Assembly: GCA_964016885.1 (NCBI GenBank)
Contig: OZ024742.1
Span: 352,222,001 to 352,286,000, forward strand
Direction of reading: 5' to 3'
DNA from: Eledone cirrhosa
Lineage: Eukaryota
DNA length: 64,000 nt
Shown here: in pieces, positions 8,301 to 57,547 of the stretch
Numbering within the stretch: the first letter of the stretch is position 1
How the letters are laid out: each line of letters opens with the position of its first letter
Notes under the pieces: generated by a model
Database searches by the model: none
What the model was told of the DNA's origin: nothing
The model's input: the letters and a program-made list of their open reading frames with translations, nothing else
Position numbers and translations under genes: made by a program

Positions 8301-9054
8301 TCCACTAATGGTAAAATGAAGACGTGGCTAATGGAATACTAATTGGGTGAACACTGTATTTTGTTCCTGTTTTAATCTGAGGACAGTAATTATACCAAAT
8401 CGAAATATGAGTTCGATTAAGATATTTCCACGTGTAGAAACGTAAACCTTTCATAATTCTCTTGTTAGAATTATCATTATACCAGAGAATTTGTGGAAAT
8501 ATAACTCCTTTAAATTTTACATTAGGATTGTAGAAATTCGTAGATGTATAACAAGACAACAATGGGTACCATGACGTATTTTATTTTTTATTGTTAACAT
8601 ACTTCACTATTGTTCAAATTCATTATTGAAGAACGTGTTTAAGTAGTCATCACCTAGTTTGACAGCAGGCGTAGAAATGCCTTAAGGATCAAACGGTTGC
8701 AAATCGAACTTCACTTTAACTTCGGGACCTTGAGTTATAATACGGTATTGTAAAAGTAATCAATGTTGGTGAATGGAGAGGTAAAATTACCTACGCCTAT
8801 AGCTCGCCGTAACTCACTGATGCCTTTTTGGTTATTCAAAAAATCGAAATTTATAAAATAGAATATTGTCTTTGCAGGATATCAACGTTCCGTATGGTTC
8901 TAGACTACATGACTCCATATCATAGTTAATGGATAATTACAATCATCATGGAGTGTGGAGACAATAAAACGGTTTATATTGATTGAGAAGATACAGTTGC
9001 AAAGCTGGCAATTCGATAAACATTGAAATTAAGAGTATGTTCGATACCTATCAT

Positions 9055-9240
9055 TGCATTGGCAGTATCGGTAGAGGGTTGGATTATGCTTTCCAGCATA
9101 GTTACGTCCCTTTACGATCTGAGTTCAATTCCCGCCGAGGTTAACTTTGCTTTTCATCCCTACGGGGTCGATAAAATAAAGCACCAGTAATGTACTGGGA
9201 TAATTGCTGGCCTTGTGCCACAAAGTAGAAACAATTATTG
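9055..9240 (+). mobile_element. tRNA-derived SINE (Meta-domain-like)
   Basis: B-box-like 'gagttcaattcccgccgagg' followed by 'ttaactttgcttttcatccctacggggtcgataaaataaagcaccagt' and the tail 'ggccttgtgccacaaagtagaaacaatta'. Related copies at 31.2-31.8 kb and 57.4 kb. Confidence 0.8.
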
Positions 9241-9811
9241 CATATATATATATATATATGTGTGTGTATGTGTGTGTGAGTGTGTGCATGTGTGCATGCG
9301 GCTGTATGTGTGTGCATATGTGTGCATGTGCGTGTGTGTGTGTGCGTGTGTGTGTGTGTCTCGAAGAGGTTGTTTTGGAAAAAACAGGAGCAGGAGGTGA
9401 AAGCTCTCAACATTCGATGTTTGTTGTATTTACGATGGAGATTCAGTATAATAATAACATTAATAAAGATGCTGGTGTTGTTATTATAAATATATATATA
9501 TATATATAAGTTGTAATATAATGAAACTAAATTTCATTTCTCACTCTTAGTACGGCACTTACTTAAATGTAAGTATGTATGTATACGTACATACATATAT
9601 GTATACAGACGTACAGTAGTATGCATATATATATGTATATATATATATACATATATACATACAGGTACACATACATATATGTACGTATCAGTTTAGCGAA
9701 CGTTTATTATAACGCCCGCTTTGTCCGTTTGTAAACAAGCGAACAGCCTGATTTATGCCATACGGTTTTAAGGCAACCACGTCACCTTTTTGTTTAACAC
9801 TGACACAGGAA

Positions 9812-9852
9812 CGATGTACTAGTTTCAAGCTTGTTAGCTATCATCAGCACCA
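9812..9852 (-). ncRNA. Minimal hammerhead ribozyme (second copy)
   Basis: Reverse complement of the 10294-10334 motif; core identical, one change at the end of stem I. Confidence 0.78.
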
Positions 9853-10047
9853 TATACCCTTCTGCAAGATAGTTGAACGTTCGAAAGTATATACTTTCCT
9901 TATGAAAATTAACGGCTGAGCAGCCTAATTTGCATATCGAGTGAGTTCAGTCGGCCAGGCGTACCGAAAACGATAAGTTGTAATATAATGAAACGAAATT
10001 TCATTTCTCTGTATACATACATATATGTATACAGACGTACAGTAGCA

Positions 10048-10092
<45 letters not shown>

Positions 10093-10293
10093 GTATACAT
10101 ACATACTTACATTTAATTAAGTGCCGTACTAAGAGTGAGAAATGAAATTTCGTTTCATTATATTACAACTTATCGTTATCGGTACGCCTGGCCGACTGAA
10201 CTCACACGATATGCAAATTAGGCTGCTCAGCCGTTAATTTTCATAAGGAAAGTATATACTTTCGAACATTCAACTATCTGGCAGAAGGGTATA

Positions 10294-10334
10294 CGGTGCT
10301 GATGATAGCTAACAAGCTTGAAACTAGTACATCG
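10294..10334 (+). ncRNA. Minimal type I hammerhead ribozyme, apparently intact
   Basis: cggtg-CTGATGA-tagct-aaca-agctt-GAAA-ctag-TA-catcg. Canonical core, stem I 5 bp (one G-U), stem II agct/agct, palindromic stem III actagt. Confidence 0.8.
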
Positions 10335-10490
10335 TTCCTGTGTCAGTGTTGAACAAAAAGGTGACGTGATTGCCTTAACACCGTATGGCATAAATCAGGC
10401 TGTTCGCTTGTTTACAAACGGACAAATCGGGCGTTATAATAAACGTTCGCTAAACTAATACGTACATATATATATGTGTACCTGTATGTA

Positions 10491-10534
<44 letters not shown>

Positions 10535-11287
10535 TGCTACTGTACGTCTGTATACATATATGTATGTACGTATACATACACACTTACATTTATATATATA
10601 TATATATATAACCTGCTTCGTTTGTTATAATTTTATATTTACCGCTGTGACTCCCTCTACCTGTTTTGGCCGTTTTGTGGTCCACCACGCTTTCATATCG
10701 AATCTCTTCATCTCTCTCTCTCTCGTATTTTTCTCTTTCTCATTCTCTCCCTCTCTCTATTTCTGTATCCATCTGCTCGTTTTCGACCGTGTTTCACACA
10801 TGTTGTAAGACCCTTTTGGATTATCTCTCTTTCCCTTCTCCCTGTCACTTCCGATGTGTCCTTCTATCTCTCTCTCTATCTACACTCATTTTGCTGAAAT
10901 CGAAAGTAAAAACCTCGCTTCGCAGTTATATTGACCATCGGACTTAAGTCCAATCGGTTCGTGGTAACATATTCTATTTCTCCTCAGTTACTCACTTGAA
11001 TGTGCCATTCACATATGCCCCCCTCAATTCAGTTTGTTTACTTCGTATTTCCTCTTTCTCTTTTTTCTCTTTCTTCCTCTCTCTTCACTAATTTTTCATT
11101 TCTTTCATTCATGGCCTTTTGATCGGTAAACGGACTTGGGCGCGATGCTGATAGTTTTCGATGACCTGTTTTAAGCGTGGAATACCTATGATCACAGTTA
11201 ACAGCTGATGAAGACTTTCTTCTCTTGTTTACGTCCATATTACTATCTTACACTTTGTTTAAAGTAACCGCACAGTCCGCTTCGTTT

Positions 11288-11362
<75 letters not shown>

Positions 11363-12361
11363 TAAACAGTCGCGACTTTTGCCGTTTCAGAAGTTAGTCC
11401 GGAACTAGTAGTTGGAAGGGCAAGAGTTGAGTCATCTAGCCCTGACTCTTTATATTATTGCTACACTCTACTACCCCAAGTATCAAGTACACTGTTTTCG
11501 GAATTTTAGATGATACGATACTATGACTTGCAGATGAAATGGCCCCGTAGAGCCTTCGTGTTTTTCATGTATACAATTATAATTCGTTGGGTTTCATGTA
11601 TGTATTTATAATTAGATATTGAGAAGAAAATGTATATTACACAATATAGACTGTACAACTGCATTATCCACCAAACAATCGTGGAGTGTAACCTGTCAAC
11701 TAATAGGTTATATCCACGGTAACAATTGATTACAGGTTTGGTACATCTATTCTGTGTGTAGCGAGATCTATGAATACACAACAACGATGTCAACTAAATA
11801 TTAGGTGATGTCTCTATATTGTATGGTATTATGGTGTATAATTTTGGAGAGTTTAGCAATGTATTTTTAAAAACATATCATCCCAGTATTTTAGGTAGAT
11901 GTTCGTGATAAATGAGCATTCACTACAATAACCATGGTTTAGGATATTCTATCGAATTAGAATATGAAGAAATATGGATATAAAGACGAAGTATTGATCT
12001 TGTTTAACACGTTTGACAACGCAATGTTTTACGGAATTTATTTCATCTCGGGACGTGACTCATAAAGAAGAGAAACTAATATTGAATGATATTCAAAACA
12101 GATATCTTAGAAATGAGCCAAATGATAGTAAATGTAATATATATTAAAAAATATAGAAATGAGTCAGCAGTGATTAGAATTAGGTGTGTATCCACATCTA
12201 AAATCCCAGGAAATGACGTGAGTTGGATACGCGAATGAACATAGAATAATGAAGGATATAACTTTAAGTTAGATGGGAAATAGATATAAGCTCGGAAGTA
12301 AAAAATCTTATATACGCATAAACAAACATTCACAAGCACACACATATATAATACTGGAATA

Positions 12362-13398: not shown

Positions 13399-13639
<241 letters not shown>

Positions 13640-15861: not shown

Positions 15862-15901
<40 letters not shown>

Positions 15902-15944
15902 CACATGCGTGTTTGTGTGTTTATATATATATATGTGTATATAC

Positions 15945-17320
15945 AGGGAAAAATATGACCCCGACGGCTGAGCTCAAGCCGTTACGACGGCTATTTTCGG
16001 ACTAAGTTCGAATATTTAGCCTGGTGAATACATAGCCGAACCTGTCAGGGGGGTACTTCCTTATGTCGGAAGATTGTAGTTGTCAATAGGATTGGTTAAA
16101 ATTTGTTGTAAACACAAATAAGTCTATCATGGCATTTGGTGGGAGGTAGGGGTGGTTGAATTTGCCTGTAGAACAATAGGTGAGTGAGTGGAGCGGACTA
16201 GCGTTGAAAGTCATATGTGTACAGCAGATTCTAAGGATAGTGTATGAAGTGGAGGAGGGAGGTTATAGAATAGGTAAATCGAATGAGAGTAGGAGACAAT
16301 AAAAGATAATAGAAAGATATAAACAAATATATATAAAATTAGATAGTGAGAAATGAATAACATTATCACAATGCTATCTTACAATTACAGGTTAATAAGT
16401 TGAGAATAGAAAAAACTTGTGGAAATTGAGAAGTAACAAAACTTATACAAAATTAAAGGGGTTTAACACGTCTGCTATACGTAGTTAGTAAACGTATTCG
16501 GCCAATTCTATTTTAAACTTACTGTGGTGGGGAAATTGATGCTACAGAGGCCCGATTGGCTGCATCGGGGTAGGCGAAAGGGGAAAAGCAGACGAGGAAG
16601 AAAATAGGGTGTGGAAGGAAGGGATAGGATGAGACAGGGGGAAGAAGAAGACAAAGACGAAAAGAAAAGAGATACATCTACACATGTAAGCTGGGGTTTC
16701 CCCGAACTTATTCGCCAAGTGTGTGTGTGGGGGGGGGGTATCAGCCCTTGTCTACCAACCCGGGTCGTTATGGGGTTTGAGGGCGGATTAAGCCCTACGC
16801 AATCTGTAAGATAGCATTTTGGTTTCTTTATTCATTTCTCACTATCTAATTTTATATATTTTTTTTATATCTTTCTATTATCTTATATTGTCTCCTACTC
16901 TCATTCGATTTACCTATTCTATAACCTCCCTCCTCCACTTCATGCACTATCCTTAGAATCCGCTGTATACATATCACTTTCAACGCTTGACATCTCCACT
17001 CACTCACCTATTGTTCTACAGGCAAGTTCAGCCACCCCTACCTCCCATCTAATGCCATGATAGACTTATTTGTGTTTACAACAAATTTTAACCAATCCTC
17101 TTGACAACTACATTCTTCCCATATGAGGAACTACACCCTCGACAGATTCGGCTATTTATTCACCAGGCTAAAAATTATTATTTATTCAAGAAATAGCAGT
17201 CGAAACGGCTTCAGCTCTACCGTTGGGGTCATACTTTTTCCTATTTCCCACTCTACTACCATAAGTATTGAACACTATGGTGCGTTATGGTCCATCTGCT
17301 TCCATACAACAATTCCATTG
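15945..17320. mobile_element. PLE-type two-armed inverted insertion (~415-bp arms)
   Basis: 15945-16360 is the reverse complement of 16827-17241. It is flanked by (TA)n. Its terminal module is related to 19690-19818 and 44082-44200. Confidence 0.7.
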
Positions 17321-17333
17321 TTATGTATATCTG

Positions 17334-17519
<186 letters not shown>

Positions 17520-19663: not shown

Positions 19664-19836
19664 TTGTATATATATATATATATCACGTGTGAAATGTGAT
19701 AAGGAAGCAGATGGACCATAACGTACCAAAGTACTCAATACTTAGATTAGTAGAGTGAGTAATAGAATTAGCCGTCGAAACGGCTTGAACTCAGCCGTCG
19801 GGGTCCTACTCGTCCCTATATATATGTATATATGTA

Positions 19837-19920
<84 letters not shown>

Positions 19921-19923
<3 letters not shown>

Positions 19924-22900
19924 AGATCAACATATGGTTAAAAGTGTTCCATGTATTTTATTATGCGCATTGCAAAAACAAATACCATCTTGCGATGACA
20001 TTTGCGTTTTCGTCAGACAAAATAAGGAGACATGATATGAAGGTTATAAAACACTTGTGAATAGTGCAGTTTTAAATCAACATGTGAAAAGTAGTTTAAG
20101 ATTGATGTGTGATATTGGGAAAAAAAGAGGGGGTGGGGAAAGCATGTAAAAGAGGAGGAGATGTGAGTAAAGAATGGAAGGGGAGGAGTATAATAAGGAA
20201 GGATGAGATAGGAGAGATGGGTGATAGAAAGAGAGAGATAATCTTTATAACTGAGAAAAATATATTGTTTTACAGAGAGAGGTTAAAAAGCCCTTGGAAG
20301 ATAATATATGAATTAAAGGAATTTGAAAATTAATGAAGAGAAAAAATTAAGAATAATGTTAAATTAAGGGTTGTATATTGAAGGGTTTAATAATATGTGC
20401 GATGAAAAGAAATTGTTAATATGTATTAAGAATAATATTAAATTAAGGTTCGAATATTGAAGGGTTTAATAATATGTGCGATGGAAAGAAATTGTTGATA
20501 TGTATTATTAAAATAAAAATATTAATGTTATTAAGGATATCATGTGAAAAGAAGTAGATGAGTGGATGAATTATGAATTTAGAGGAATTAGTTAATGTTT
20601 AAGTTTGCTTTTATGTAATGTAATATGTATGTGTAATATATGTAAATAGTTTGTTTACAAATGAGCGCAGAAAGCAAAGAAGGAGATAGTGTTTAAGGTA
20701 GAGAAGATACTAACATCAAAATATGTATGTTTATGAAGTATTTCCTAATGGTAATAATATAATGTAATAAAGGAGATTAGTTAAGGTTTAAGTTTGTTTT
20801 TATGTATTGTGATGTGTAATATGTAGAAATTAGACGAGCATGAAAGGAAGAAAAAAATAATGAATTGAGGACTAATAATCTAACGTAAAAAAAATGTTTA
20901 TGTTTACGAAGGATTTTTAAAGGTGATACTATAAAGTATTTAAAAGGGTAATAGTAAGTTTTATGGCCAGTGATAAGATGGAAGAAGGAAGAGTGGATAT
21001 ATTGTGGTGAGTAATTATGAGAATTGAGAAGTATCTAGGAAGAAAAGTTACAGATTAGAGGTTAGAAATTAAAAGAAAAAAGAAGAAAGGGAAGTGATAA
21101 TAAGAATGATATAGAATGGGTAACTAGTATTATATAATGTATAATAAATAACATGGACATAAGGTAGAAAGATGGGTATATTTTTAAAGAAATATATATA
21201 TATATATATATGCCTTTGAGAAAAAGGATTTTAAATTGGTAAAGTATCAGATATTAGCCGGAAATGTTATGGAATGTTCTGTGGAATTTATGCAAGCAGA
21301 GAGAAAATAAGTCAGTGCGTCTATTTATTATTGAATCTGAATTAGATATACTGGTAACTTTCTGACATAAACAGAGATTACATGTTTTGGATAGAGAGGC
21401 ATTCAAATGTGGAGAGGCAGAACAAACTTTCTTCCAATAGATGTTATGGTTAATATTTTTGTCTTTCAAGGATCATATGAGTTCTGAGAGTGCCGTGTTG
21501 GTTCTTTTAAGTTGGTATTTAAAAGACGAATGATGATTATAAAGACGAGCTTTAAAGGTGGAAGTGGAGCCAAAATAGGTAAAGGAATTGGTGTCAGTTA
21601 TAACTTTACATTCATAGATTAAGTTTTTTTCAAGACAATGGTTGTTGAGAGGACATTTATATTTAACAGGGTAATTACAATTGCGATTAGAGACATTAAC
21701 ACAGTTATTGACAAGTGACCTAGTGTTATCTATAGGAGGAATTGGATTGGAGAAGTTATTTACGATAGGAATAATAGTTTCTTGATTTAGATTGGGATTA
21801 AGAACATTTAACGAAGTTGCGTTTGACGTCGTATTCGGGTTTGCAGAAATTAGCCTAGAGTTAACAATGACGTCGGGTGTACTACTGCTATTATTATGAT
21901 AATCAGTGTTGGAAGGAAGAGATTTACTATTTAGTATTTTATTGTTGTGTTTAGAGATAATGTTGGAGATGTTGGAGGAGGTCGAATAGGAAAATGTTAT
22001 AGTATGTTTGTTAAATATTTTACTATAGATATGTGAGGGAGGGAAGCATTTATTTAAGGCACTAAAGAATAATTTAGGAATATTATTATTAATAGAGATG
22101 GAGAAAGGAGCATTATACCAGATTATATTTTTGTATCTAGGTCTCTTATTAAAGTTATTGGAATGATCATGATTAATTATGTTACTGTAAGATCTTCTAG
22201 GATTGGTTTTTTATTGTATTTGATTTTATCAGCATAACCGGCTTTAGAAAGCGCATTATTATAGTAATTGGTGTTAGCATCAAAGATGTTATTATTATAT
22301 GATAGGTTTGATATTCTTTTTCCAATATTACTAACTAGAGCATTTTTAATGTTAGTGGGGTGGTTAGATTTAAATTTAACATAATTTAGATTCTCATTGT
22401 TTTTATGGTAAGGGTAAGATAGGCCAGTGTCAAGATTAAGAGATATATCCCAGAAGTTAGCTAGTTTGATGTTGTTATCAAATTAAATGTTTACGTTATG
22501 TTGGTTAAAGAGATCACGTATATTGTTCTTAATAATATTAAGTTTAACTATGTTTCAATTTAAGATAGTAAAAAGTCCATCGTCCCGATAAATTCCACGC
22601 GAAGTTGAGGAATTTTCCGATTCAAAGAGTTCAAAATAAAGATACCAATTAAATCTGTCAATTGGGATGAATCGGATGCAGCCATTGTAATGTCAAAGTT
22701 GTTGGAGGTATCAGCTCTGGACAGTATTCATTGTTGTATTCTAAGATGGTTTTACGTGCGGTGAGAATGATGAGAAGTTCATCTGTCGTGATGTCAGGAA
22801 TATTTATAAGCGAAAGATAGAGCATTGTTGAGAAGTGAGTGCGAAATAGAAGAATAGTAGCTGGCAATATCAAATTGAATAAATGTTTGTTTGTTTTTCT

Positions 22901-24628
22901 TATTCAATGTGTTGAACCAGCCTATTACTTCAGAAGTACCAAACCATACATTTAAGTTAGAAGTAGAGCAATTAGAACGAACCTGTTGGATAAGTCTATC
23001 CAAGATAGCTTCGCTAACAGCCCCATATTTGATTTAGAGGGGGTGATTAGTCTAACAGGTAGTTCAGTACGAAAGTAGTTTTGTGATCCTTGAGATTTAA
23101 CCTCGGAGTTCTTGGGAGGAATGGTTCGGTCTTTTTTTCGATGCCAGGTTTTGACATAATCTCAGAAGCTTCAAAGTTTATGGATTCTTAATTATCATGG
23201 TTAGTTTTGCGATATTTCTTCCTAAGTTTTTTAAAGATAAGGTTGTTATAGTTATCCTTAGATATACCATATACATTATTTGTTTTGTCGGAGTGGACTA
23301 AAACATTTTTTGAGAAATTTAGGTTTAAAATCGTATTCTTGAAATTTACAAGGTGCTCTTGTCCTCTGTAAAGGTTTCCCTTGATTTTAAGATTTCTTAT
23401 AATGTTAGATAACTCTTCCTCGAATTGCACTAGATTTTGTTGGAAGGAGGATTTCTTCTAGAATTAAATAAATGATTAAATAAACTGGCCATAAAACTTA
23501 CTATTACCCTTTTAAATACTTTATAGTATCACCTTTAAAAATGCTTTGTAAACATAAACATTTTTTTTGCGTTAGATTATTCCTCCTTAATTCATTATTT
23601 GTTTCTCCCTTTCATGCTCGTCTAACATTTACATTTTACACATCACAATACATAAAAACAAACTTATACCCTAACTAATCTCCTTTATTACATTATATTA
23701 TTACTATTAGGAAATACTTCATAAACATACATATTTTGATGTTAGAGTCTTCTCTTCCTTAAACACTATCTCCTTCTTTGCTTTCTGCGCTCATTTGTAA
23801 ACAAACTATTTACATATATTACACATACATATTACAATACATAAAAACAAACTTACACACTAACTAATTCCTCTAAATTCATAGTTCATCCACTCCTCTA
23901 CTTCTTTTCACATTATATCCTTAATAACATTAATATTTTTATTTTAATAATACATATAAACAATTTCTTTCCATCGCACATATTATTAAACCCTTCAATA
24001 TTCGAACCTTAATTTAATATTATTCTTAATACATATTATCAATTTCTTTTTATCGCACATATTATTAAACCCTTAAATATACAAACCGTAATTTAACATT
24101 ATTCTTAATTTTTTCTCTTCATTAATTTTCAAATTATTTTAATTCATATTTTATCTTCCAAGGGCTTTTTAACCTCTCTCTGTAAAACAATATAGTTTTC
24201 TCAGTTATAAAGGCTATTTCTCTTTCTATCACCCATCGCTCCTCCTATCTCATCCTTCCTTATTATACTCCTTCCCCTCCATTCTTTACTAACATCTCCT
24301 CCTCTTTTTCATCCTTTCCAACACCTCTCATTTTTTTTCCTAATATCACACATCAATCTTAAACTACTTTTCATATGTTGATTTAAAACTGCACTATTCA
24401 CAAGTGTTTTTTAACCTTCATATCATGTCTCCCTATTTTAGCTGACGAAAACGTAAATGTCATCGCATGATGATATTTGTTTTTGAAATGCGCATGATAA
24501 AATACCTGGAACTCTGTTAACCATCTTTTGATCTTATATTATTTATACTCCAGTCCTACAAACTGTTGAGTGCTACTTATCCGATATCTGCATTGCTTAA
24601 TTGTACTACAATAAATCTCACCTCCTAC

Positions 24629-25394: not shown

Positions 25395-25604
25395 GTCTGA
25401 AGGCTCTGATACAACGATACACCATAATCACAGAGCTGGCATATCTAAGAACTGACTATCTGCCTGTTGATGTCATAGTCATTCAATGGCTATCATCGAA
25501 ATATAAATGGCAGTAAATAAAGGATTATGAATTCATGCAATTGATTTATGTTTCGTCTCTCTATATATATATACATATATATACACATATATAAATATAT
25601 ATAT

Positions 25605-26390
<786 letters not shown>

Positions 26391-26394
<4 letters not shown>

Positions 26395-26595
26395 TTATTA
26401 AAATTACAGATCAAAGTTGAAGCAAATAATCACTGCTTTCACCCTTAACGGGATCTTCTGAAACGATTCTTTGTTTAAACTTTAATCTGTTATTTTAATA
26501 AATATCTGCTCTAGGGTTCTTATGTATTTGATATATATTTCTCCATATCGAGACTTCTTTGTATTTTAGTCTTCGCATTTATTATTATTACGATA
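26391..26595. mobile_element. Minimal two-armed insertion of the same PLE family
   Basis: 26391-26464 is inverted and 26465-26595 is direct relative to 29165-29330. Confidence 0.75.
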
Positions 26596-27071
26596 TATTT
26601 ATATATATATTTCTGTTTGTGAGTCTGTATGTATATGAGGAATGGTGGAAATATTCAACATATGGAACCATTCTTCTCATTGCATATGTTTTCCTACTGC
26701 TAAAGGGAAAATGCAATGTAAAAACACTAACATTAATACCATAATTAAATCGAATATATAAAATCAAATTATAAACAATTTACAATCTGCCCAATATTAC
26801 AAAGCTGTCAAGAGTGAGATGTTATAAAATCATTAATTAATTATGAACTATTAGCATTTTTGAATTCCGACAATATAATTATTTGAGCTATCGTAGAGAA
26901 TATCATCTATAATTGTAGTTATGTTAAACAAACCCGATTGCCTCAATTTACATGGCATTCTATCAGAAATACACAGACTTAAATATATAAATACATACAC
27001 ACATACATGCAGAAATAGATAAACACACACATAAGAGGAAAAAACACAATACATAAAATTCACTAATAATA

Positions 27072-27098
<27 letters not shown>

Positions 27099-27102
<4 letters not shown>

Positions 27103-29326
27103 TTATTAAAATAACAGATTAAAGTTTAAGCAAATAATCGCTGCTTTCACCCTTAACGGGATCTTCTCAAACTAACAAAGTCAATCTGTAAACGCAGAAC
27201 TGGATATTTAAAAAAACGTTGCAACCGGAGGAAGACAGGAAGACGATACTTTGGTTCGTGGTAACGTTCGCTGGCAAAGAACGGGAAAAAACGAATATAA
27301 TACGTCATTTTTAGGAGCGGTGAAAAACAATTACGCGCAAAGACAGAACCACGTTTATGGTATAAAAGAGGTCGTAGACTAATGTTCTCTTAGGTGGTAC
27401 ATAGAGACGGTCTCTGGCAATGGACGAAAAAAACCTGAGATAATACGTCATATGTGGAGCGTGGAGAACAATAGCACGCAAAGACAAAACCACGTAAATG
27501 GTATAGCAGAAGTCGTAGACTAAATTGTTACTAGGAGACCGAATGAAACTCCGCTACAGAGTTAATAACAAAGTAAATAAATACAATACAGAAGTAATAG
27601 AAATAAATAAATACATACACGCAAACTTACCATAGGTAAACAAAACCACCCACATATAAATATGTGTGTGTGTATGTGTGTATGCACGTGTTCCTACGGC
27701 TAGGTAGTTTAGCTAAATTTGAAGCTCTGATGTTATGTGCAAGGTTAGGAGTCGTAGGAACACGTGCAACCCTGTAGTTAGTACTAACTGTAATTGTGGG
27801 AATCGGGTTGATTGCCCCCTATCCGGGAAATGCCTCTCTAGTAACATTGTCTACAAATGTAAGGTTGTAACACCCACGTCCCGTAGGGGCTACATAGGGT
27901 TTACCGCCAATAGATTCAAGCAGCGTCTTTACATGCATACTCATTATTTTCGTTACCCTCTAAGAAGGAATATGACGTCACTTTCAGCTTATATCTGGTG
28001 TCTAAAAGACAACCACACCCAATATAAGTTACACTGGGAGATCCTAGCTAGGGCTAGATGGTATAACGGAAATGAAAAACCATGTGACCTCTGCGCCGCT
28101 GAGGCCCTGGAAATACTCTACGCCACAGACCACATCTTAAACAAAAAATCTGAGGCAATTTCGGCTTGTAAACATAAATTGCACAAAACTTTCCTGTATT
28201 ACAGCCCCACGTTATACCCTAACGGATAGTACGATCTATACGTGGATATTATACATCTTGATGTGGGAGCTAAGTATATCTTTTGTTTATACCTTTACTT
28301 ATTTGCATAGATAAGTATATATTACGCGTATGTTTTGTGAAGGTACGTATACCTTCTCGTACGTATATTTGATTGTTATGGCGTATCATTTTTTTTATAT
28401 ATTCTGGTACATATGGTTCGGCTATGTGTATACGGGAGTTTTGCGTCTGTGTGAGTACGTAGGTTCGTACGTATGTAGGGCGTGTGTATATGTGTACTTC
28501 ATGTTTTGGTTGACTTACGTCTCCGAACATTCGTGTATTTACATGTAGGTATGTGTGTGCACTTGTTATATACGTATTTATTTATTCATATACGTTTATA
28601 TAATTATTTATTTATTTGTATACACGCATACACACACACACACATATTTATATGTGCGTGGTTTTGTTTACCTATGGTACGTTTTTGCGTATGCTTGTGT
28701 ATGTAAGTATTTGTTTGCGTGTATGTATTTATTTATTTCTATTACTTCTGTATTGTATTTATTTACTTTGTTCTTAACTCTGTAGCGGAGATTCATTCGG
28801 TCTCCTAGTTAGAATTTAGTCTACGACTTCTGCTATACCGTTTACGTGGTTTTGTCTTTGCGTGCTATTGTTCTCCCCGCTCCACATATGACGTATTATC
28901 TTCGTTTTTTTTCGTCCATTGCCAGAGAACGTCTCTATGCACCACCTAAGAGAACATTAGTCTACGATCTCTTTTATACCATAAACGTGGTTCTGTCTTT
29001 GCGCGTAATTGTTTTTCACCGCTCCTATTAATGACGTATTATATTCGTTTGTTCTCGTTCTTTGCCAGCGAACGTTTCCACGAACCAAAGTATCGTCTTC
29101 CTGTCTTCCTCCGGTTGCAACGTTTTTTGAAATATCCAGTTCTGCGTTTACAGATTGACTTTGTTAGTTTGAGAAGATCCCGTTAAGGGTGAAAGCAGCG
29201 ATTCTTTGCTTAAACGTTAATCTCTTATTTTAATAAATATTTGCTCTACGGTTCTTATATATTTTATATATATTTATCCTTATCGAGCCATCTTTGGATT
29301 TTAGTCTTCAAATTTATTAATATTAC

Positions 29327-29330
<4 letters not shown>
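27099..29330 (+). mobile_element. 5'-truncated Penelope-like element: inverted pLTR arm, GIY-YIG region, 3' pLTR
   Basis: 27099-~27685 is the reverse complement of ~28625-29240. Internal GIY-YIG ORF. Both ends abut (TA)n. Confidence 0.88.
27735..28229 (+). CDS. PLE GIY-YIG endonuclease domain (C-terminal fragment of the PLE ORF)
   Basis: CNCGNRVDCPLSGKC, then IVY..YIG.T..FKQRLY.H, TSLSAYIW.LK and CDLCAAEAL..ILNKKSE..CKH. Open for 164 aa. Confidence 0.85.
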   Translation: MCKVRSRRNTCNPVVSTNCNCGNRVDCPLSGKCLSSNIVYKCKVVTPTSRRGYIGFTANRFKQRLYMHTHYFRYPLRRNMTSLSAYIWCLKDNHTQYKLHWEILARARWYNGNEKPCDLCAAEALEILYATDHILNKKSEAISACKHKLHKTFLYYSPTLYPNG

Positions 29331-29410
<80 letters not shown>

Positions 29411-29417
29411 TATTATT

Positions 29418-31224: not shown

Positions 31225-31845
31225 TAGGCGGTAGATTTGCAGTATGGGTCGGACACCATGCTTTGACGCATAGAGTTACGGCCCTTGCCATTATGAGTTC
31301 AAATCCCGCTGAGGTTAACTTTGCCTTTCATCCTTACGGGGTCAATACAATAAAGTACCAGTAATACACTGGGGTAATAGCTGGCCTTGTGCAAAATGTA
31401 GAAACAATTATTGATGACGTGCAATTGATTGGGAGTATCGGTAGAGCATCGGACAGCATGCTTTGTGACATGTAGTTACTTTCTTTACGATCTGAGTTCA
31501 AATTCCGCCATGGGTATTACGGGGTTAATAAAATAAAATTCAAATATCGCACTGGAGACGATATGATCAACTTTACCCGTCTCTGTTAACTGCTCCTGTG
31601 TTAAATGAACGATTATTAATGATAGCGGTGAATTAGCTGCACTATCGTTAAAACGACGACATGATTTGCGACATATTCTTACGGCCCTTTACAATCTGAT
31701 TTCAAACCGCACCAAATTTAACGTTACATTTCATTCTAACTGAATCAATACAGTAAAGTACCAGTAACACATTGATATATATTTAATATAAATTCCTCAT
31801 TCCCTTCAAATTGCTGTTTTTGTAACATAAGTAGAAGCAATTATT
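31225..31845 (+). mobile_element. Three tandem diverged SINE copies of the 9055 family
   Basis: 'gagttcaaatcccgctgaggttaactttgcctttcatccttacggggtc' at ~31295, with degenerate repeats at ~31494 and ~31697. Confidence 0.7.
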
Positions 31846-35314: not shown

Positions 35315-36866
35315 GACTAGTTCTTTTTCCCCCAGGTAAAATGGTGTACATTATTCGATTTTTTCAGTAAAATCGGTTCTCTTAATAGAACATCAAACAT
35401 CTTAACAATAAAAGGTGTGAAATGAATTTCACTATATATATATACACACATACATATATTCTCTATATACATATATATATATACATATATATATATATAC
35501 ACATATACATATATATACACATACATATGCACATATATTTTTTTGTGTAGCACCATAGAGCATGTGTGTTTACGTATGTCATTGTGTTTATATGTGGGTA
35601 GAGATGTGTGCTGATGTAGGTATGTATGTAGACGTGTGTATGTTGTGGGTTCGTCTTAGGGAGAAGTGTTTAGACGGGGTCCGTATTTGTTAATGAAGTA
35701 AGATTCCTTGCTGATGCGCTGGGTGTGGGTGGCATTATCGTTGAATTTGTAGAGGGGAAAGATTCTGAAGTTGGGATGATTTTGGGCGGCACAGGTATCA
35801 ATGTGTTCCCTCAGTGGTATTTTCCTGTATTCCCGTATTTTAATTTGGGATCTATGGACAGTCATGCGTTGGCGGAGGCTGTTTTTGGTCTGGCCTATGT
35901 ATTGTTCTCGAAAACCTGAACAAGTTAATACATATATTAGATTTTTCGATGCACATGTGAAGTTGTGTTTTACTATAAAACATTGTCCATCTTTGAAATA
36001 GAATTCCGAACCCTCTATTAGGTTGATGCAAATGCCACAGTTGGGTCTATCGCATTTTTTTACTGTGGGTTTCGTTGTTGTGGTTGGCAGTACTTTGGCA
36101 TGTGTTAAGATGTTTTTCATTGACTTGGATTGTCTTTTGCTCTTTATGATATCGTGTGTTCGTAGAATTTGGTTCATTCTATGGTCCTTTTTCAATACAG
36201 GGGTGTTCTGGAGGATGGTGTCAAAGGCCTCATTGTTGAGGGTTTGTGTGTGGAGATGTATGGAAGAGCTTTTAGTTTTGGTTGATTTACTTTAGGGTGT
36301 CTAAGGTCCTGGGTACTGAGTTTTAGGGCACGTTGGATTCCATTGTCAATTAGTGATGCAGGGTAGTCCCTGCCTATGAGTGTGTCCTTTAGTTCTTGTA
36401 GTCGTAAGTAGCAGATGTTTTTATTGGAGACTATAGTACATATTCTCTTGGCTAAGTTGTAGGGAATATTAATTTTAACGTGTCTAGGGTGGCAAGAGTT
36501 GAAGGGGAGATATTGCTTGGAGTCTGCGGGCTTGTAGTATATGTCTGTTTCTATTTTTTTGTTATGGATCTTAATGAGGATGTCGAGGAAGGGGAGTTGT
36601 TGATGGCTGCATTCCATCGTGAAGTTAATATTTGTGTTGAGCCCATTTATAAGGGTGTGAAATTCTTTAAGTTTTTCGATGTTTTCGTGCCAAAGGATGA
36701 AGCAGACATCTAGATATCGCTTCCAGTTCCTTTCTATGTGTAAGTGGAGGGTGTTTCCAAATTTGTTTAGGACTTTAGTGTAGAGGGTGATTTCCAGGTA
36801 TCCCATGACTAGGTTGGCATAAGTGGGGTCTGTTTTCGTTCCCATAGCGGTCCCAGATTTCTGCAT
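34415..36866 (-). mobile_element. 5'-truncated Penelope-like element (Neptune-type linker) with microsatellite-rich 3' pLTR
   Basis: 36192-36866: GTAMGT..PTYANL.MG, WKRYLD, LPFLD, TDIYYKP, SCHP. 35656-36195: KCDRPNCGIC, NLIYVLTC, YIGQT..LRQRM..H, KE.YFI.KY.P.LN. One frameshift. Degenerate hammerhead at ~34538-34572 (-). Confidence 0.9.
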
Positions 36867-36879
36867 ATATATATATATG

Positions 36880-37478
36880 CAAAGATTTTATTAAAAATTG
36901 TTGTGTTACAACAAGTTAATATTTTATAACTGATATAAAGCACTCGACAAGTTTTTGGAGTAGATATACGATATTAAACAAATGGAAACTATATTTATAA
37001 AACCATATTTATTTCATAAAAACATATTTCAGGGATACCAGGGATATATTGAGTTTATCTTTATCTATGATGAATTATTATGTATCTGTCGCTTTAGTTT
37101 GCCTCTCTTATTTCTCTCTTGTTTCTTGTTTCTCTTTCACTTCCTCCTATATATTTATATTTTCTCTCTCTCTTTCCCCCCCCCCCCTCTCTCACTCTCT
37201 CCATGTTTTCTTTATCTCTGCTTTTTCTTTCTCTCCGTTTTTTCTAACTGTGCTTAACACTATAACTAAATAATTATAAACAAATTCACTATCCAGACAG
37301 CTTCCTAATCTAATGGTCGCTTATATTATGGTACGTCAAAATTATTTATAAAACTGTTTATATATTGTATTTTATATGACGAAGGCATGCAATTTTTTTT
37401 AATATGGTATCCCTGAAATATGTATAATGAAATAAATATGGTTTTATAAATATAGTTTCCATTTGTTTAATATCGTAT
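36880..37478. mobile_element. Short two-armed inverted insertion (75-bp arms) in (TA)n
   Basis: 36965-37040 is the reverse complement of 37404-37478. A related sequence lies at 38240-38340. Confidence 0.6.
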
Positions 37479-41769: not shown

Positions 41770-42342
41770 GTGTGTGTTTTGTAACCGTTCACTTTGTGGC
41801 TCAATGAGGATTTAATCACTTAACCAATCAGAGGTATATATCATAAAACATGTCTATAGAATCACCAGAAAAAATATGTACCGTTTCTTCTCCCAATTAG
41901 CATAATTAACCTTATAAAATATCAATTAGACCACGCTATAAGAATAAATGCTCCTATGAAGAAATCTCCGACAAATAATCGAAAGCAGCCCCTCGCGGCG
42001 GTTGTGACGGAGTATTTATCGAGTATTTCGACAGCGTGTATAAATCGACCAGATATACAGTCAACTAAACAGAATTAGGTGTAAAATAAACTAGGAGAAA
42101 AGTGAACATATTTAGTTTCTCTACCATGGTTTCGTCCGCATTTTAAGATATCCGATAACATTGGAAATCTGGAGCATCGGACACTTCAGGAGTTAGCTCA
42201 AATTTAGACAATTAATTTTCCAAAGTGATCGCGCCAAAATCTGGTGATTCTATAGACATGTTTTATGATATATAGCTCTGATTGTTTAATTTATTAACTC
42301 TTCATTGGGCCACAAAGTGACCCATTGCAAATCCCCCCCCCC

Positions 42343-42350
<8 letters not shown>
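41770..42350 (-). mobile_element. Two-armed insertion of a further hammerhead-bearing pLTR-like family
   Basis: 41770-41870 is inverted relative to 42239-42350. The body is the reverse complement of 43620-44015. Confidence 0.7.
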
Positions 42351-42406
<56 letters not shown>

Positions 42407-42413
<7 letters not shown>

Positions 42414-43399
42414 ATAATAATAAATTTGAAGACTAAAATCCAAAGAGGGCTCGATAAGGATAAATATATATCAAATATATAAGAACCGTAGAGCAAATAT
42501 TTATTAAAATAACAGATTAAAGTTTAAGCAAAGAATCGCTGCTTTCACCCTTAACGGGATCTTCTGAAACTAACAAAGTCAATCTATAAACGCAGAACTG
42601 GATATGGGTGTTTTGCGTCTGTGTGAGTATGCAGGTTCGTACGTATGGTGAGTGTGTGTATATGTGTACTTCTTGTTTTGGTTGACTTACGTCTCCGAAC
42701 ATTCGTGTATTTATATGTAGGTGTGTGTGTGCGCTTGTTATATACGTATTTATTTATTCTTATACGTTTATATAATTATTTATTTATTTGTATACACGCA
42801 TACACACACACACATATTTATTTGTGCGTGGTTTTGTATACCTATGGTAAGGTTTTGCGTATGCTTGTGTATGTACGTATTTGTTTGCGTGTATTTATTT
42901 ATTTATTTCTATTACTTCTGTATTGTATTTATTTACTTTGTTCTTAACTCTGTAGCGGAGATTCATTTGGTCTCCTGGTTAGAATTTTAGTCTACGACTT
43001 CTGCTACACCATTTACGTGGTTTTGTCTTGGCGTGCTATTGTTCCGCACGCTCCACATATGACGTATTATCTTCGTTTTTTCGTTCATTGCCAGAGAACG
43101 TCTCTATGCACCACCTAAGAGAACATTAGTCTACGACCTCTTTTATACCATAAACGTGGTTCTGTCTTTGCACGTAATTGTTTTTCACCGCTCCTATTAA
43201 TGACGTATTATTCGTTTTTTCACGTTCTTTGCCAGCGAGCGTTTCCACGAACCAAAGTATCGTCTTCCTGTCTTCCTCCGGTTGCAACGTTATTTTGAAA
43301 TATCAGTTCTGCGTTTACAGATTGACTTTGTTAGTTTCAGAAGATCCCGTTAAGGGTGAATGCAGCGATTCTTTGCTTACACCTTTATCTGTTATTTTA

Positions 43400-43407
<8 letters not shown>
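42407..43407. mobile_element. Two-armed insertion of the 27.1-29.3 kb PLE pLTR
   Basis: 42407-42605 is the reverse complement of the pLTR end including its tail; 42606-43407 is a direct copy of ~28435-29240 without the tail. Confidence 0.85.
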
Positions 43408-43459
<52 letters not shown>

Positions 43460-43461
<2 letters not shown>

Positions 43462-44015
43462 CTTTATATGTAATAATCTCCCGTTAGGTTGAGATACAAT
43501 TTTGACTGTATTGGGCTGCGCTTTCTAGCAAAAGGTCACCAGCCGTAAGCAACTAATCACATTCTTTCTAACTTGACCGCTGTCACGTCACGATTGTTAG
43601 CCATTTTTTTATGTATTCTTGGCGCGATCACTTTGGAAAATGAATTGTCTAAATTTGAGCTAACTCCTCAAGTGTCCGCGCTCCAGATTTCCAATGTTAT
43701 GTGATATCTTAAAATGCGGACGAAACCATGGTAGAGGTTCCTAAATATGTTCAATTTTCTCCTAGTTTATTTTACATCTAATTCTGTTTAGTTGACTGTG
43801 TATCTGGTCGATTTATACACGTTTTCGAAATACTCGATAAATATTCCGTCACAACCGCCGCGAAGGGCTGCTTTCGGTTATTTGTCGAAGATTTCTTAAT
43901 AGGAGCATTTATTCTTATAGCGTGGTCTAATTGATTTTTTATATGGTTAATTATGCTAATTAGGAGAGGAAACGGTATATATTTTATCTGGTGATTCTAT
44001 AGACATGTTTTATGA
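43460..44015 (+). mobile_element. pLTR-like element (family of 41770-42350) with a degenerate hammerhead
   Basis: ctc-CTCAAGT-gtccgc...gcggac-GAAA-ccatgg-TA-gag at 43665-43736; flanked by (TA)n. Confidence 0.65.
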
Positions 44016-44276
44016 TATATATATATATATACACATATACAAATATATGTATATATATATATATATACACAAATATATATATAGGAACATTTTAACCCCG
44101 ACGGCAGAGCTCAAGCCGTTTGAATGGCTATTTCTGGACTCTACTACCCCAAGTATTGAGTACTCTAGTGCGTCATGGGCCATCTGGTTCCTTACCACAC
44201 CTCTATATATATGTATGTATATGTCTCTCCACCACTCCCCTACACACCCTTTGAACTCTGTTCCCACACACTTCTC

Positions 44277-44308
44277 ACCTGAGGAAGGGCTTATGCCCGA
44301 AACGTCGT
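44277..44308 (+). ncRNA. Minimal PLE-type hammerhead motif
   Basis: ac-CTGAGGA-a-gggc-ttat-gccc-GAAA-cg-TC-gt, within a ~170-bp element ending at (TA)n. Confidence 0.65.
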
Positions 44309-44396
44309 CCCCCACCAACACCCCACTCTACAGAGCGTGAAATTAATAAACATTCGTTGTACTGCCTCTCTCTTTTGTCCCTGTTCAAATGTTTCC

Positions 44397-44656
<260 letters not shown>

Positions 44657-45466: not shown

Positions 45467-45775
45467 ATGGTGGCGGAGGTGGTAGTAGTAGCAGTAGTGG
45501 TTGTGGTGATAGTAGTAGTAGTAGTAATAGTAGTGGTAGTAGTAGTAGTAGTAGTAGTGATATTATTATTAGTAGTAGTAGTATTAGTAGTAGTAGTAGT
45601 AGTTGCTGTTGTTGTTGTTGTCGTCGTCGTTGTTGTTGTGCTGTGGTTGTAGTGATTATAGCATTCCTGGCAATGCTGTTGCTGCAGTTTCTGTATTAAA
45701 TCGTATACTAACTCCTTGTCTATTGTAAAATCAACAATAGCAACAACAGCAACAAGAGCAACAACAACTACAGCA
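45355..45775. repeat. Compound (TAG)n/(GTT)n/(CAA)n trinucleotide repeat
   Basis: Read directly; it is the source of the poly-V and poly-T pseudo-ORFs. Confidence 0.95.
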
Positions 45776-48700
45776 ATAATTATGATTTCATTTATTGGCC
45801 ACCAGGGCCGACATATAGGAGACAATACAAAAGACTGGGACAGTGGGGGTTTTACAGAAAAATTGAGTAAACAATATAAATAAAAATAACAAAGTAACAA
45901 TAAAATACAACAAAAACGATTCCTCAATAGGGGGGGGGGTGTCCACCCAGGGTTCACTCAGGTAACCCACCAATCCTGAACGACCTGACACTTCGAGAAC
46001 ATCCTGGAAGGGCACCCCTTTCCTCCTCAAATTTACCCAACTAAAGGCGCATGACCAGAGTAGGCCCACTCACACGGGCCATTCTCGCCACATTCACCCA
46101 CCTCCAGCAAATGTACATGGGGGGCAGCACTTCTCTCTCCACCCTCACCTTCCTTTCCAAGTGAAACTTGAAAAGTTTGATGAAGTATTAGCCGAAAGGT
46201 AAAGTGACTGTCTTCATTCCTTTCCACCTGGTCCACCATACAACCTCTTTCACTACTGCCACCAGACAGGAACATTTCCTGCACGTTCTGGCCAAAAGAA
46301 GGCGACGGGCCGATCTTCACTATGGACAAGGCCGATAGATGGATCCGTTCTACACGCGACAACAGCTGCATCTCGGGCAGGTTCGTCTGACAGCACTTCC
46401 GTGCCTGTAGAGATTATCTCGAACCGGCAGTGCCCCCTGGTAGCACTGCCATGCGAGGGACTTTTGGAAATTATCCATCGTCCCCGGCTCGAAAATCATC
46501 CGGAACAGACTAGTTACTCCGACTTCGGTGACTCTCAGAGCCTCTCCGAGTGCTTCGTCGAACTTGCCCACCACTAATGCTCTATAGAACTCGAGAGTGG
46601 AAGTTCCACTGACCGCATTACCCGCCTGGTAGAGGGCAGTGAGTGCCTGGCAACATTCCAGAGGCCAGTCACCCAGTCCTGTCTCTTCTTGACCCAGGAC
46701 TGCAGCTCAGTCAAAGAAACACACCGCGGAAAGGCCAGTCTACCAAACGGCGACCACACATGTTCACCGTATAGGCAGAATATCTGGAGATGCCGCAGCA
46801 TCAGCGCGTGTCTGCGCATCATTAGCCATGGGATGCCCAGGCGTCCACGTAGAGGGTACTGGCAGCAGATGGACGCCTCACCAGCGGAACCTGACCCCTC
46901 CACAAGAATTTGAAGAGGAGGCGCTCCAAGATGGCTAGGCGCGACGGCGACAAAGGACGACGGTCAGACAGTAGTAGATGACGGACGCGATGTACGCCTT
47001 CACCACCTCCGCTCGACCTTTCAGTGATAGCTTCATCCCAGCCCCTTTCTGGATGAGACTGGCTACCCTGCCCGTCACCTCATCCCAATTCGTATCCACC
47101 TGGAGGGCTGACCCGAACCAAACCCCGAGCAACTTTACCGCTCCGTCCGTCCAGCGCCAAACGACGCTGTTGGACGGCATGGACTTACCTCTCCAGGTGC
47201 CGAGTTGCAAGCTCACCAACTTTTCCGGGTTAAGTTTTGCTCCTGTCAAACTTTCATATTCATCCAATAATTTGCAGACCACCTCGATTTCTGAGGTGTC
47301 CGACACCATCACGGTGATGACTTCCGCATAATCAGACACAGCCTTTTCGCGCCCCGGTTCGAGCGGGATGCCCTGCAACAGCTCCAGCTTCCGCAGTAAC
47401 GGCTCGTGTGTCAATACATACAGAAGGGACGAGAGAGGGAACCCTTGACGGACCGATCGGGAGTCCTGAAACGGTTCCGAGAGGTGACCATTAATGTTGA
47501 CCACCGAGCAGGTGTCGCTGTGCATTGCAGCGATTCAGCTACTGAAGACGGGGCCGAAGCCAGCCGCCTTGAGGACAGCCTCCAGGTACCGATGGTCGAC
47601 CCTATCGAAAGCTTTCGATTGATCTAAATTGACCTGAACCCCACCGAAGCCAGGTTTACAACCTACACCCTCTATGACGTATCGCATCAGGTGCAGGTTG
47701 TCGTGTATGGACCTGGTTGGGATTGCGCAAGTTTGCGGCTGTTTTGTATTGAAGAAATGGTCTAATGCCATTCTCGCCGCTAGCACGTTGGTTGCAATGC
47801 CACTACAAATAGCCTCGCCTAACTTATCTACCAACTCTGCCTCCTTTCTATTTTTCTCTAACGCTACTTCTTTGCTAAACTCTATCGACATTACCCTAAT
47901 CTCTATCTTGAGAGCACCCCCACCCCCAGCATCTATTGTTGACGACTCCCCCTGTCAACGTTTGCTGAACTAAATTGTTGACCTGGTAGCTGTAAGCCTT
48001 GCGTGCCGGAAATGATATTTTCAGCTTCCAGTAACCAGGTCCTAATCTACGGGTCTAATCTAAGTCGACCATACAGATCACAAACTAGTGATCTGAATAG
48101 GCGACCGTTTTAAAACGTGGACAGCTTACACTATTTCTGACAATTTTCCTAATGAATATCATAATGAATATCAAAATGAATATCTATATAGGATCTAGCC
48201 GACCCTATGCGGTTAGTCCAGGTCCACACTGGCGCATTAGCGAAATCTAGTCGGTACCTGTCAGAGAGTTGGAACTGGCTGACCAAGTTCTTGAGGCATT
48301 TGCACGCCCCGCTCATATCGGAAACTCCTACACAGCCCCAGAGTGCGTCAAATATGCCTTTCCAGTTCCCCCCGCTAACAGTAAAGGGCGAGACGTACAC
48401 AGAAAGGCTTCCAGGCGTCTAAAGAAGTCCGCCCGTCCTGCCCCAGTAGGGGCGTAGAGGCCACCAGTCTAAAAGCACCACCTTCATTATTGTTCACGTC
48501 CCGGACCACCAACTTCCTGTGCGGGTTCCGGAAGATCGACATTACCTCGAGATCCAGCCTTTTCCTTAACAACACTGTCAGCCCATCTCCTTTTCCCGAC
48601 CGACTAACAGATGCAAATATCTGACAGTCATCGAAAACGGGGGCTAGTGCGCGCGTGTCGGAAATCCTGGTCTCGCTGACGGCAATTACATCCATTTCTA

Positions 48701-54552: not shown

Positions 54553-54581
54553 GCTGGCAGGATGAATGGGAGAGGAAAGGT

Positions 54582-56491: not shown

Positions 56492-56702
56492 GTTTTTTTG
56501 AGAAAAAAAATTATTATTTTTCCAAAATAAAGTTCAAATATTTGGGCCAAAAGGCCCAAATATTATGAGTTATTCCTTCACAGGATACAAATGAATGTCT
56601 TATAATGCTTCAGCGGTACAAAAGAATAAACAATTCTCCACAATTAATCCTCAAAAAATTGCTTACTCACGGAGCTTCAAAAAACGTACATCCACTTTCG
56701 TC

Positions 56703-57354: not shown

Positions 57355-57545
57355 AATAATACTAATAATTGTTTCTACTTTTGGCACAAGGCCAGCAGTT
57401 ATCCACTGTATTACTGGTTCTTTATTTTATCGACCCCGTAAGGATGAAAGGCAAAGTTAACCTTGGCGGGATTTGAACTCATCATAAAGGGACGTAACTC
57501 CATGCGTCAAAGCATTATGTCCGACTTTCTACCGATACTGCCAAT
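57355..57545 (-). mobile_element. SINE of the 9055 family
   Basis: Reverse complement of the same domain: 'ttttatcgaccccgtaaggatgaaaggcaaagttaacc..gggatttgaactc'. Confidence 0.8.
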
Positions 57546-57547
57546 CC

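Follow-up and report, generated by a model that had tools for sequence, protein, structure and literature searches.

Locus layout and unit structure

The locus consists of two inverted copies, A and B, of a unit of approximately 470 nt. It lies within a 64-kb window, i.e., the whole stretch of DNA that was analysed. Unit positions are given in the coordinates of copy B. The features of the locus were assigned as follows.

9487..9508, no strand: left flanking (TA)n target tract, overlapping the 3' end of copy A by a few bases
9506..10050, minus: copy A, a 5'-truncated partial unit plus one full 467-nt unit, with its 3' end (9506) at unit position 10173 of copy B
9973..10050, minus: upstream overrun of copy A, i.e., 41 nt of the TA-rich arm, a 41-nt deletion and a 37-nt repeat of copy A's own 3' end
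10051..10088, no strand: central (TA)19 tract where the orientation inverts; it is self-complementary and corresponds to the internal TA tract of the unit
10086..10592, plus: copy B, 5'-truncated, a 477-nt unit plus an overrun of approximately 30 nt, with its 3' end at unit position 10115
10456..10592, plus: TA/TG-rich self-complementary arm, part of the unit (counterpart in copy A, 9564-9690)
10591..10610, no strand: right flanking (TA)n target tract, with TA overlap with the 3' end of copy B

The copies are placed head-to-head, i.e., their 5' ends meet at the centre and their 3' ends run outward into (TA)n tracts of approximately 20 bases. The sequence-only reading of this DNA had described a unit that runs past its own start in both copies, copies that are opposed across a (TA)n tract with different end points, and no coding capacity. 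The inverted pair is real, and this observation was confirmed on re-analysis. The spacing was re-measured as 467 nt in copy A (9506/9973) and 477 nt in copy B (10086/10563), copy A ends at unit position 10173 and copy B at 10115, and no ATG-started frame of the doubled unit exceeds 54 aa. The period of copy A is given by a 37-nt direct repeat at 9506 and 9973 (97%), and that of copy B by 10086-10115 and 10563-10592, which match at 29 of 30 positions.

The overruns are short, i.e., approximately 30 nt in copy B and 37 nt in copy A, plus 41 nt past the 41-nt deletion. In the overrun alignment of copy A, 74 of the 76 aligned letters match, with the 41-nt gap. Each copy thus extends over 1.06-1.25 units. 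The 10-nt difference in period between the copies sits in the internal (TA)n tract of the unit, and the TA-rich arm was therefore assigned as part of the unit. The non-repetitive cores of the two copies are identical at 316 of 326 positions, the copies are 97% alike overall, and the inverted arms 9620-10009 and 10137-10526 are 96% complementary across 390 nt. A read-through transcript of the locus would form a long hairpin. The GC content of the unit is 35%, and no third copy of the unit was found in the 64-kb window.

Just left of the locus, a SINE-like repeat was found at 9054-9240, with copies at 31248-31413 and 57364-57549 that are 84-88% alike. Presumably it resembles an octopus SINE.

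Hammerhead motifs

Each copy carries one type I hammerhead motif.

9811..9853, minus: type I hammerhead motif of copy A, predicted cut after 9817
10293..10335, plus: type I hammerhead motif of copy B, predicted cut after A10329, with an extended helix I predicted at approximately 10269-10353

The motif of copy B has a 6-bp helix I, the core CUGAUGA, a U.U followed by a 4-bp helix II, and GAAA. Helix III is reduced to the palindrome ACUAGU, and its self-pairing was predicted at -6.8 kcal/mol. The features of a type I hammerhead, i.e., CUGANGA, GAAA, UH and helices I-III in type I order, are present in both copies. Three private changes in copy A make its extended helix I weaker, at -17.4 kcal/mol compared with -25.8 in copy B.

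A type I descriptor, which was composed after the motif had been seen, matched exactly twice on the two strands of the 64 kb, once in each copy. Over 100 shuffles of the window, the rate was 0.03 loose matches and no strict match per shuffled window, and 5,000 shuffled units gave 1 loose and 0 strict matches. The canonical hammerheads that had been noted at 9812-9852 (minus) and 10294-10334 (plus) were recovered by the descriptor at 9811-9853 and 10293-10335, with a null near zero. The hammerhead pattern scan gave no match in metagenome contigs or viral contigs, and a looser scan gave one match (L001). Two weak hammerhead-core-like strings with poor helices, at 13446 (+) and 41633 (+), came from relaxed scans run without a null and are probably due to chance.

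In the Rfam search, the motif had no match at the gathering score. The best score in the clan was HH9 with 17.6 bits (E 0.34) at a cut-off of 52, and a further HH9 score was 15.8 bits. The isolated motif was not predicted to fold better than shuffles (z -0.24 to -1.18, four sense-strand stretches). ViennaRNA, to whose model the catalytic core does not belong, favours a core-sequestering pairing in both monomers, and the upper pairs of helix I have a probability of 0.01-0.2. The canonical metazoan hammerhead architecture is described as requiring a second copy for a dimeric active site (PMC4209133). Two hammerheads on one strand were not found at the locus, and with only one motif per strand the locus would be unable to release a monomer or a circle alone.

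Several candidates were rejected. The circular unit has a strong predicted fold (z -6.8 and -6.1), and this was discarded as a sign of a circle because the TA arm drives the fold; the non-repetitive part alone gave z -2.3 in the sense and -0.3 in the antisense direction. Matches to Rfam microRNAs and snoRNAs were rejected, being all below the gathering score and nearly all on TA tracts. A Pol III SINE with a hammerhead, i.e., the schistosome type, was rejected as well, for the hammerhead strand is without an A/B box or a tRNA-like head. No A or B box was found on the plus strand of copy B at 0-1 mismatch, and no tRNA family was among the 87 Rfam matches.

Family of the unit in public sequence runs

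Twenty public runs contain part of 10090-10470, two of them at least half. No RNA run is among the 23 runs, which has no bearing on expression. Family counts were taken from four runs, i.e., X1, X3, X4 and the RAD run X21; X2 and the 16 small-share runs X5-X20 were left out. In organism A, 5,226 and 5,530 contigs matched the unit (two runs, one sample), and in another sample 66,635 of 12.47 million RAD reads did. In organism B (run X4), four contigs matched with 90-99% likeness at a depth of 2-8, and these may come from a low-copy relative, a transfer or a contaminant. The mean word depth per contig is approximately 11,000-12,000 at 10117, 10286 and 10292, and 5-45 by the same measure for the eight long X1 pieces listed. 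Word depth, which is no copy number, suggests that the family has a thousand copies or more.

Of the 21 contig pieces listed, 7 (one of them from organism B) extend across position 10175, where the end of one unit passes into the start of the next. The bridging pieces differ from the unit at 4-20 positions, and none of the 21 pieces listed spans the full 381-nt stretch. Because the bridging pieces are diverged and organism B has one, the ORF-less junction appears to be old and shared rather than a local duplication.

This junction bears on another explanation, in which the unit is the pseudo-LTR (pLTR) of an ORF-bearing Penelope-like element (PLE). Most genomic copies would then be 5'-truncated ends of this PLE, and the ORF-less tandem would be a less common form, derived by deletion and without an RNA-circle life. 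The main support comes from 64 contigs each in X1 and X3 that depart from the unit after 10159, with a departing sequence that is partly common (agreement approximately 0.6); this sequence may be mixed flanks, a diverged junction or the parent element. The summed word depth in X1 also drops approximately 65-fold from 10129-10141 to 10168-10180. In addition, PLE pLTRs are reported to bear type I hammerheads with a palindromic helix III, and motif pairs on opposite strands with a spacing of 100-700 bp are regarded there as truncated PLEs (PMC4209133). Retrozyme consensus sequences of Xenopus are reported to match pLTRs (bioRxiv 10.64898/2026.07.22.740005). However, the contigs that cross the junction include diverged ones and one of organism B, and the depth dip is nonspecific because word depth falls at 10402-10466 too. 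Among the 23 loose ends listed, most of which are only 11-27 letters long, the well-agreeing ones of organism A resemble unit variants and none could be tied by eye to an ORF. The helices of the unit are canonical (6 bp and 4 bp), not of the long-helix-II minimal form described as typical of metazoan PLEs (PMC4209133). The pLTR explanation was therefore judged unlikely. The extreme case, i.e., that every copy is the fixed 3' pLTR of a PLE with an ORF, had been named beforehand as one that would speak against a retrozyme, and it is contradicted by the ORF-less junction in 7 of the 21 pieces listed.

Two other ends were noted. A single organism-B contig departs from the unit at 10331. A loose end before 10123 was rejected as a tail boundary because its letters resemble a unit variant.

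Variants and pairing in helix I

The changes G>T at 10296 and T>G at 10332 occur at matching read fractions (0.05/0.53 and 0.05/0.50), and together they convert a G.U to a U.G pair in helix I. If the register is moved by one base, the changes at 10285, 10286, 10287 and 10340 form U.G, A-U and G.U pairs. ViennaRNA favours the unshifted register for the lower helix in both window copies, so that the shifted covariation register is not the predicted one. The helix I variants thus keep pairing across the family, with a linkage that was taken from read fractions, not haplotypes, and with one register unlike the predicted fold. In X1 contigs the fractions disagree (5% at 10296 vs 38% at 10332). Variant 10303 lies at the free core position 7 and variant 10313 in loop 2. 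None of the 40 variant places listed falls in the 12 core positions, which is not significant (P 0.26). The variation in helix I, in which pairs are kept, may reflect selection on an RNA fold.

A repeat copied at the DNA level, i.e., by a Helitron-type rolling circle or by satellite turnover with inversion, could bear a hammerhead-like relic. Rolling-circle copying yields overruns and permuted ends, and such elements often contain microsatellites. However, the unit is without subterminal inverted repeats, the inverted matches of at least 8 nt in 10100-10460 being one palindrome and one 8-mer. The pair-keeping variation may point to a selected RNA fold, and the inverted 5'-truncated partners fit PLEs. 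A DNA-level origin was thus judged highly improbable.

Copies A and B have minority alleles in common at 10160, 10184, 10286 and 10447, and this fits one template lineage. Copy B alone carries the rare letter at 7 of the 40 variant places listed, as expected for later private mutation.

Insertion structure

According to published descriptions, PLEs insert as partial tandems with truncated 5' ends; many carry a further 5'-truncated copy in inverted orientation at their 5' end, and one end bears a tail of 30-40 bp. For Naiad clade PLEs, (TA)n is reported as a preferred target (PMC8557442). At the locus, a partial tandem with an inverted 5'-truncated neighbour is present in (TA)n, and inversions recur in the family. 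The strand changes in 12 of the 15 joints listed. Of these twelve, nine have one side within 10090-10124 (in five cases at 10118-10124), and their partners are spread over 10269-10430. In seven of these nine, the short side ends at 10149-10151, the AATT site where RAD reads start, and these joints fit the head-to-head geometry seen at the locus. The RAD joints have 1-3 starts each and are possibly copies of one chimeric molecule, and the RAD start sites bias which joints are visible. Inversions independent of RAD were found in an X3 contig (10103/10315) and in record 17 of organism B, in which an inverted 10116-10155 is joined to 10211-10447. Among the joints listed, no inversion joints cluster at the cut site 10329, the nearest being at 10315 and 10338.

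Approximately 28,600 RAD reads with loose ends at 10149-10151 were discarded, as their agreement was only 0.34. These ends lie on the AATT site (10146), and two AATT sites are connected by a joint 10145-10236, which makes an origin of the ends by restriction or ligation likely. On the same grounds, the joint 10146/10395 was discarded.

The joints near 10116-10124 may mark a tail within the unit.

10116..10159, plus: putative PLE-type tail segment of approximately 40 nt, marked by the record 17 piece and the five RAD joints at 10118-10124

The stop of copy B at 10115 adjoins the inverted 40-nt piece 10116-10155 of record 17. Copy B stops just before the second occurrence of the segment, and copy A includes it. 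An 8-bp hairpin was predicted at 10138-10157 inside the putative tail. One organism-B contig and the five RAD joints fit a tail of 10116/10124-10155, and the ends of the two window copies differ by 58 nt.

The pair could also have arisen by two separate insertions of the same family and mechanism, i.e., of B later into the TA tract at the 5' end of A, or the reverse. This is made conceivable by the 10 of 326 core positions at which A and B differ, by the (TA)n target motif inside the unit, and by the window being full of TA-tract insertions. However, A and B have minority alleles in common, and the rare letters of B alone at 7 of the 40 listed places are accounted for by later private mutation. 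Furthermore, both 5' ends lie within approximately 35 unit positions, and the same head-to-head joint recurs in the family. Two insertions were therefore regarded as rather improbable.

PLE remnants and other repeats in the window

A broken PLE remnant with reverse transcriptase (RT) and GIY-YIG nuclease pieces was found at 35659-36887 on the minus strand. The GIY-YIG domain (PF01541) matched at 35659-36291, and the nuclease is preceded by a CX4CxxC motif, a feature reported for the Neptune and Nematis clades (PMC8557442). The RT piece adjoining GIY-YIG had 174 homologues, many with RT and GIY-YIG. Among the 120 listed, the best named homologue was an Octopus bimaculoides protein with 54% identity, with bivalve proteins close behind. 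Taken with the TA-rich landscape and the SINE-like repeat at 9054-9240, this tentatively points to a molluscan host, probably an octopus. No sequence common to the unit and the PLE remnants was found in the 64-kb window.

A second hammerhead core, of the minimal type, was found at 44279-44310 on the plus strand. It has a 4-bp helix II, no helix III stem and a helix I of approximately 2 bp. Its repeat of approximately 400 nt lies between TA tracts (44015-44400), has partial relatives at 15876-16003, 17241-17342 and 19667-19887, and looks like a PLE pLTR. Inverted arms of 1.07 kb at 19909-20971 and 23484-24547 are 93% alike, and each contains 79-bp tandem repeats. They flank PLE-like coding remnants at 21476-22482 on the minus strand (recognized by eye, with no Pfam match), i.e., an inverted PLE-type insertion.

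Further inverted pairs between TA tracts, 89-94% alike, were found at 15945-16383 and 16805-17242, at 41835-42237 and 43619-44021, and within 25563-29413. The last of these families contains internal repeats of 139 nt and a GIY-YIG-like remnant that was recognized by eye (27723-28229), and further copies of it lie at 42350-43472. An apparently intact LINE lies at 51133-56533 on the minus strand, with frames of 424 aa and 1,150 aa, the second of which has endonuclease, RT and zf-RVT domains. A decayed LINE relative, 74-88% alike, was found at 45775-50419. A GC-richer 173-bp tandem repeat occupies 426-2076, with 74-79% matches.

Proposed origin of the locus

The locus was interpreted as a head-to-head pair of a many-copy, ORF-less, hammerhead-bearing repeat of approximately 470 bases. 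In our judgement it is fairly likely that this repeat is of the retrozyme type and that an autonomous PLE supplied the proteins for its copying and insertion into (TA)n. The sequence-only reading had proposed a non-autonomous ribozyme element, copied into (TA)n sites from a multimeric or circular RNA, probably by PLE reverse transcriptase. The ORF-less many-copy family and the PLE-type insertion into (TA)n agree with it, whereas the locus alone would give no monomer.

In the proposed mechanism, source loci with two or more tandem units would be transcribed. The hammerheads would cut as dimers and free a monomer, and a host ligase would close the circle; dimeric cutting is proposed because helix III is only a palindrome. 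A PLE protein with RT and GIY-YIG would nick (TA)n and prime reverse transcription inside the RNA, near unit positions 10115-10175. Reverse transcription would then read through the hammerhead site into the previous unit. Both strands of the target would be primed, and two 5'-truncated cDNAs would be joined via the self-complementary TA tract, giving an inverted pair in one event. A single event is preferred because A and B have minority alleles in common and the type of joint recurs. Purified PLE protein is reported to nick AT-rich DNA and extend both strands, and to start reverse transcription inside RNA at two tail-bounding sites, on uncut RNA (PMC11167929).

Both copies reach 240-275 nt upstream of the cut site. 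Because they extend past it, the template would have been circular or an uncleaved multimer rather than a linear monomer produced by cutting. An uncleaved multimer accounts for the overrun equally well as a circle. The locus itself is likely a dead-end product. It was considered a derivative copy and not an active retrozyme, for it lacks two consecutive hammerhead units, while the family is likely of the retrozyme type.

A more specific reading is that of a dispersed, thousand-copy cephalopod retrozyme whose circular RNA is the direct PLE template, with both (TA)n strands primed and with head-to-head, permuted, tailed copies longer than the unit. It is put forward tentatively, as somewhat unlikely in this full form. 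If true, the copy ends across the genome would prove that animal retrozymes are mobilised by PLEs, and they would show where RT starts on the circle.

The element class, its occurrence in molluscs (mussel, PMC7229834) and its link to PLEs (bioRxiv 10.64898/2026.07.22.740005) are already in print, and the unit is likely a new member of this known class of animal elements. Among the openly accessible papers searched, no cephalopod report of such a hammerhead or retrozyme element was listed, and no title or abstract start dealt with tails or inversions in retrozymes. In the published accounts consulted, PLE mobilisation of animal retrozymes has so far been argued from co-occurrence and pLTR homology, not from insertion structure. 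This idea would become testable with a large family that combines TA targeting, inversions and ends of the PLE type. Otherwise, the unit is an expected repeat type for a PLE-rich mollusc genome.

Comparison with known systems

Metazoan non-LTR retrozymes were described by Cervera and de la Pena in 2020 (PMC7229834), with circular RNAs in coral, mussel and axolotl. The present unit shares the features of retrozymes, i.e., a short ORF-less low-GC unit with a canonical type I hammerhead and a head-to-tail junction common across the family. As in that report, there are many copies, and PLEs are found in the same genome. The U.U at the base of helix II is as in axolotl HHR_Amex2, and the weak palindromic helix III as in HHR_Amex1. 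On the other hand, the unit (467-477 nt) exceeds the 170-400-nt circles reported there and includes a long TA arm. Each copy here has 1.06-1.25 units with one hammerhead per strand and no array.

Non-LTR retrozymes were regarded as non-autonomous PLE derivatives by Li, Clavereau and Pollet in 2026 (bioRxiv 10.64898/2026.07.22.740005). The sample of that preprint is given as 31 vertebrates, 3 insects and 1 coral, with no mollusc, and its case for PLEs is described as resting on co-occurrence and pLTR homology. One of nine tested dimers was cleaved. The unit falls within its size range of 51-972 bp, monomer derivatives are common there, and dependence on PLEs is proposed in both. In the preprint, a retrozyme counts as "active" if a complete hammerhead is present in each of two or more consecutive units, whereas the present locus has no two consecutive hammerhead units. 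Insertion ends, tails and inversions were studied here and are absent from the analysis of the preprint as far as it was available.

With endonuclease-bearing (EN+) PLEs and their pLTRs, the unit has in common the partial tandem, the inverted 5'-truncated neighbour, a putative tail-like segment of approximately 40 nt, the (TA)n target and the type I hammerhead with palindromic helix III (PMC8557442, PMC4209133, PMC11167929). It is unlike the EN+ PLEs of these reports in having a period of approximately 470 nt instead of approximately 3 kb and a hammerhead that is canonical, not minimal. No ORF for RT and GIY-YIG, as in an autonomous EN+ PLE, was found in the unit, whose longest ATG frame is that of 54 aa. 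The non-autonomous Chlamys element MRC1 (PMC8557442) is green algal, and its 3' end is described as similar to its autonomous partners, whereas no likeness between unit and PLE was seen in the 64-kb window. The unit would resemble MRC1 as an ORF-less, PLE-dependent type of unit that forms pLTRs and head-to-tail copies.
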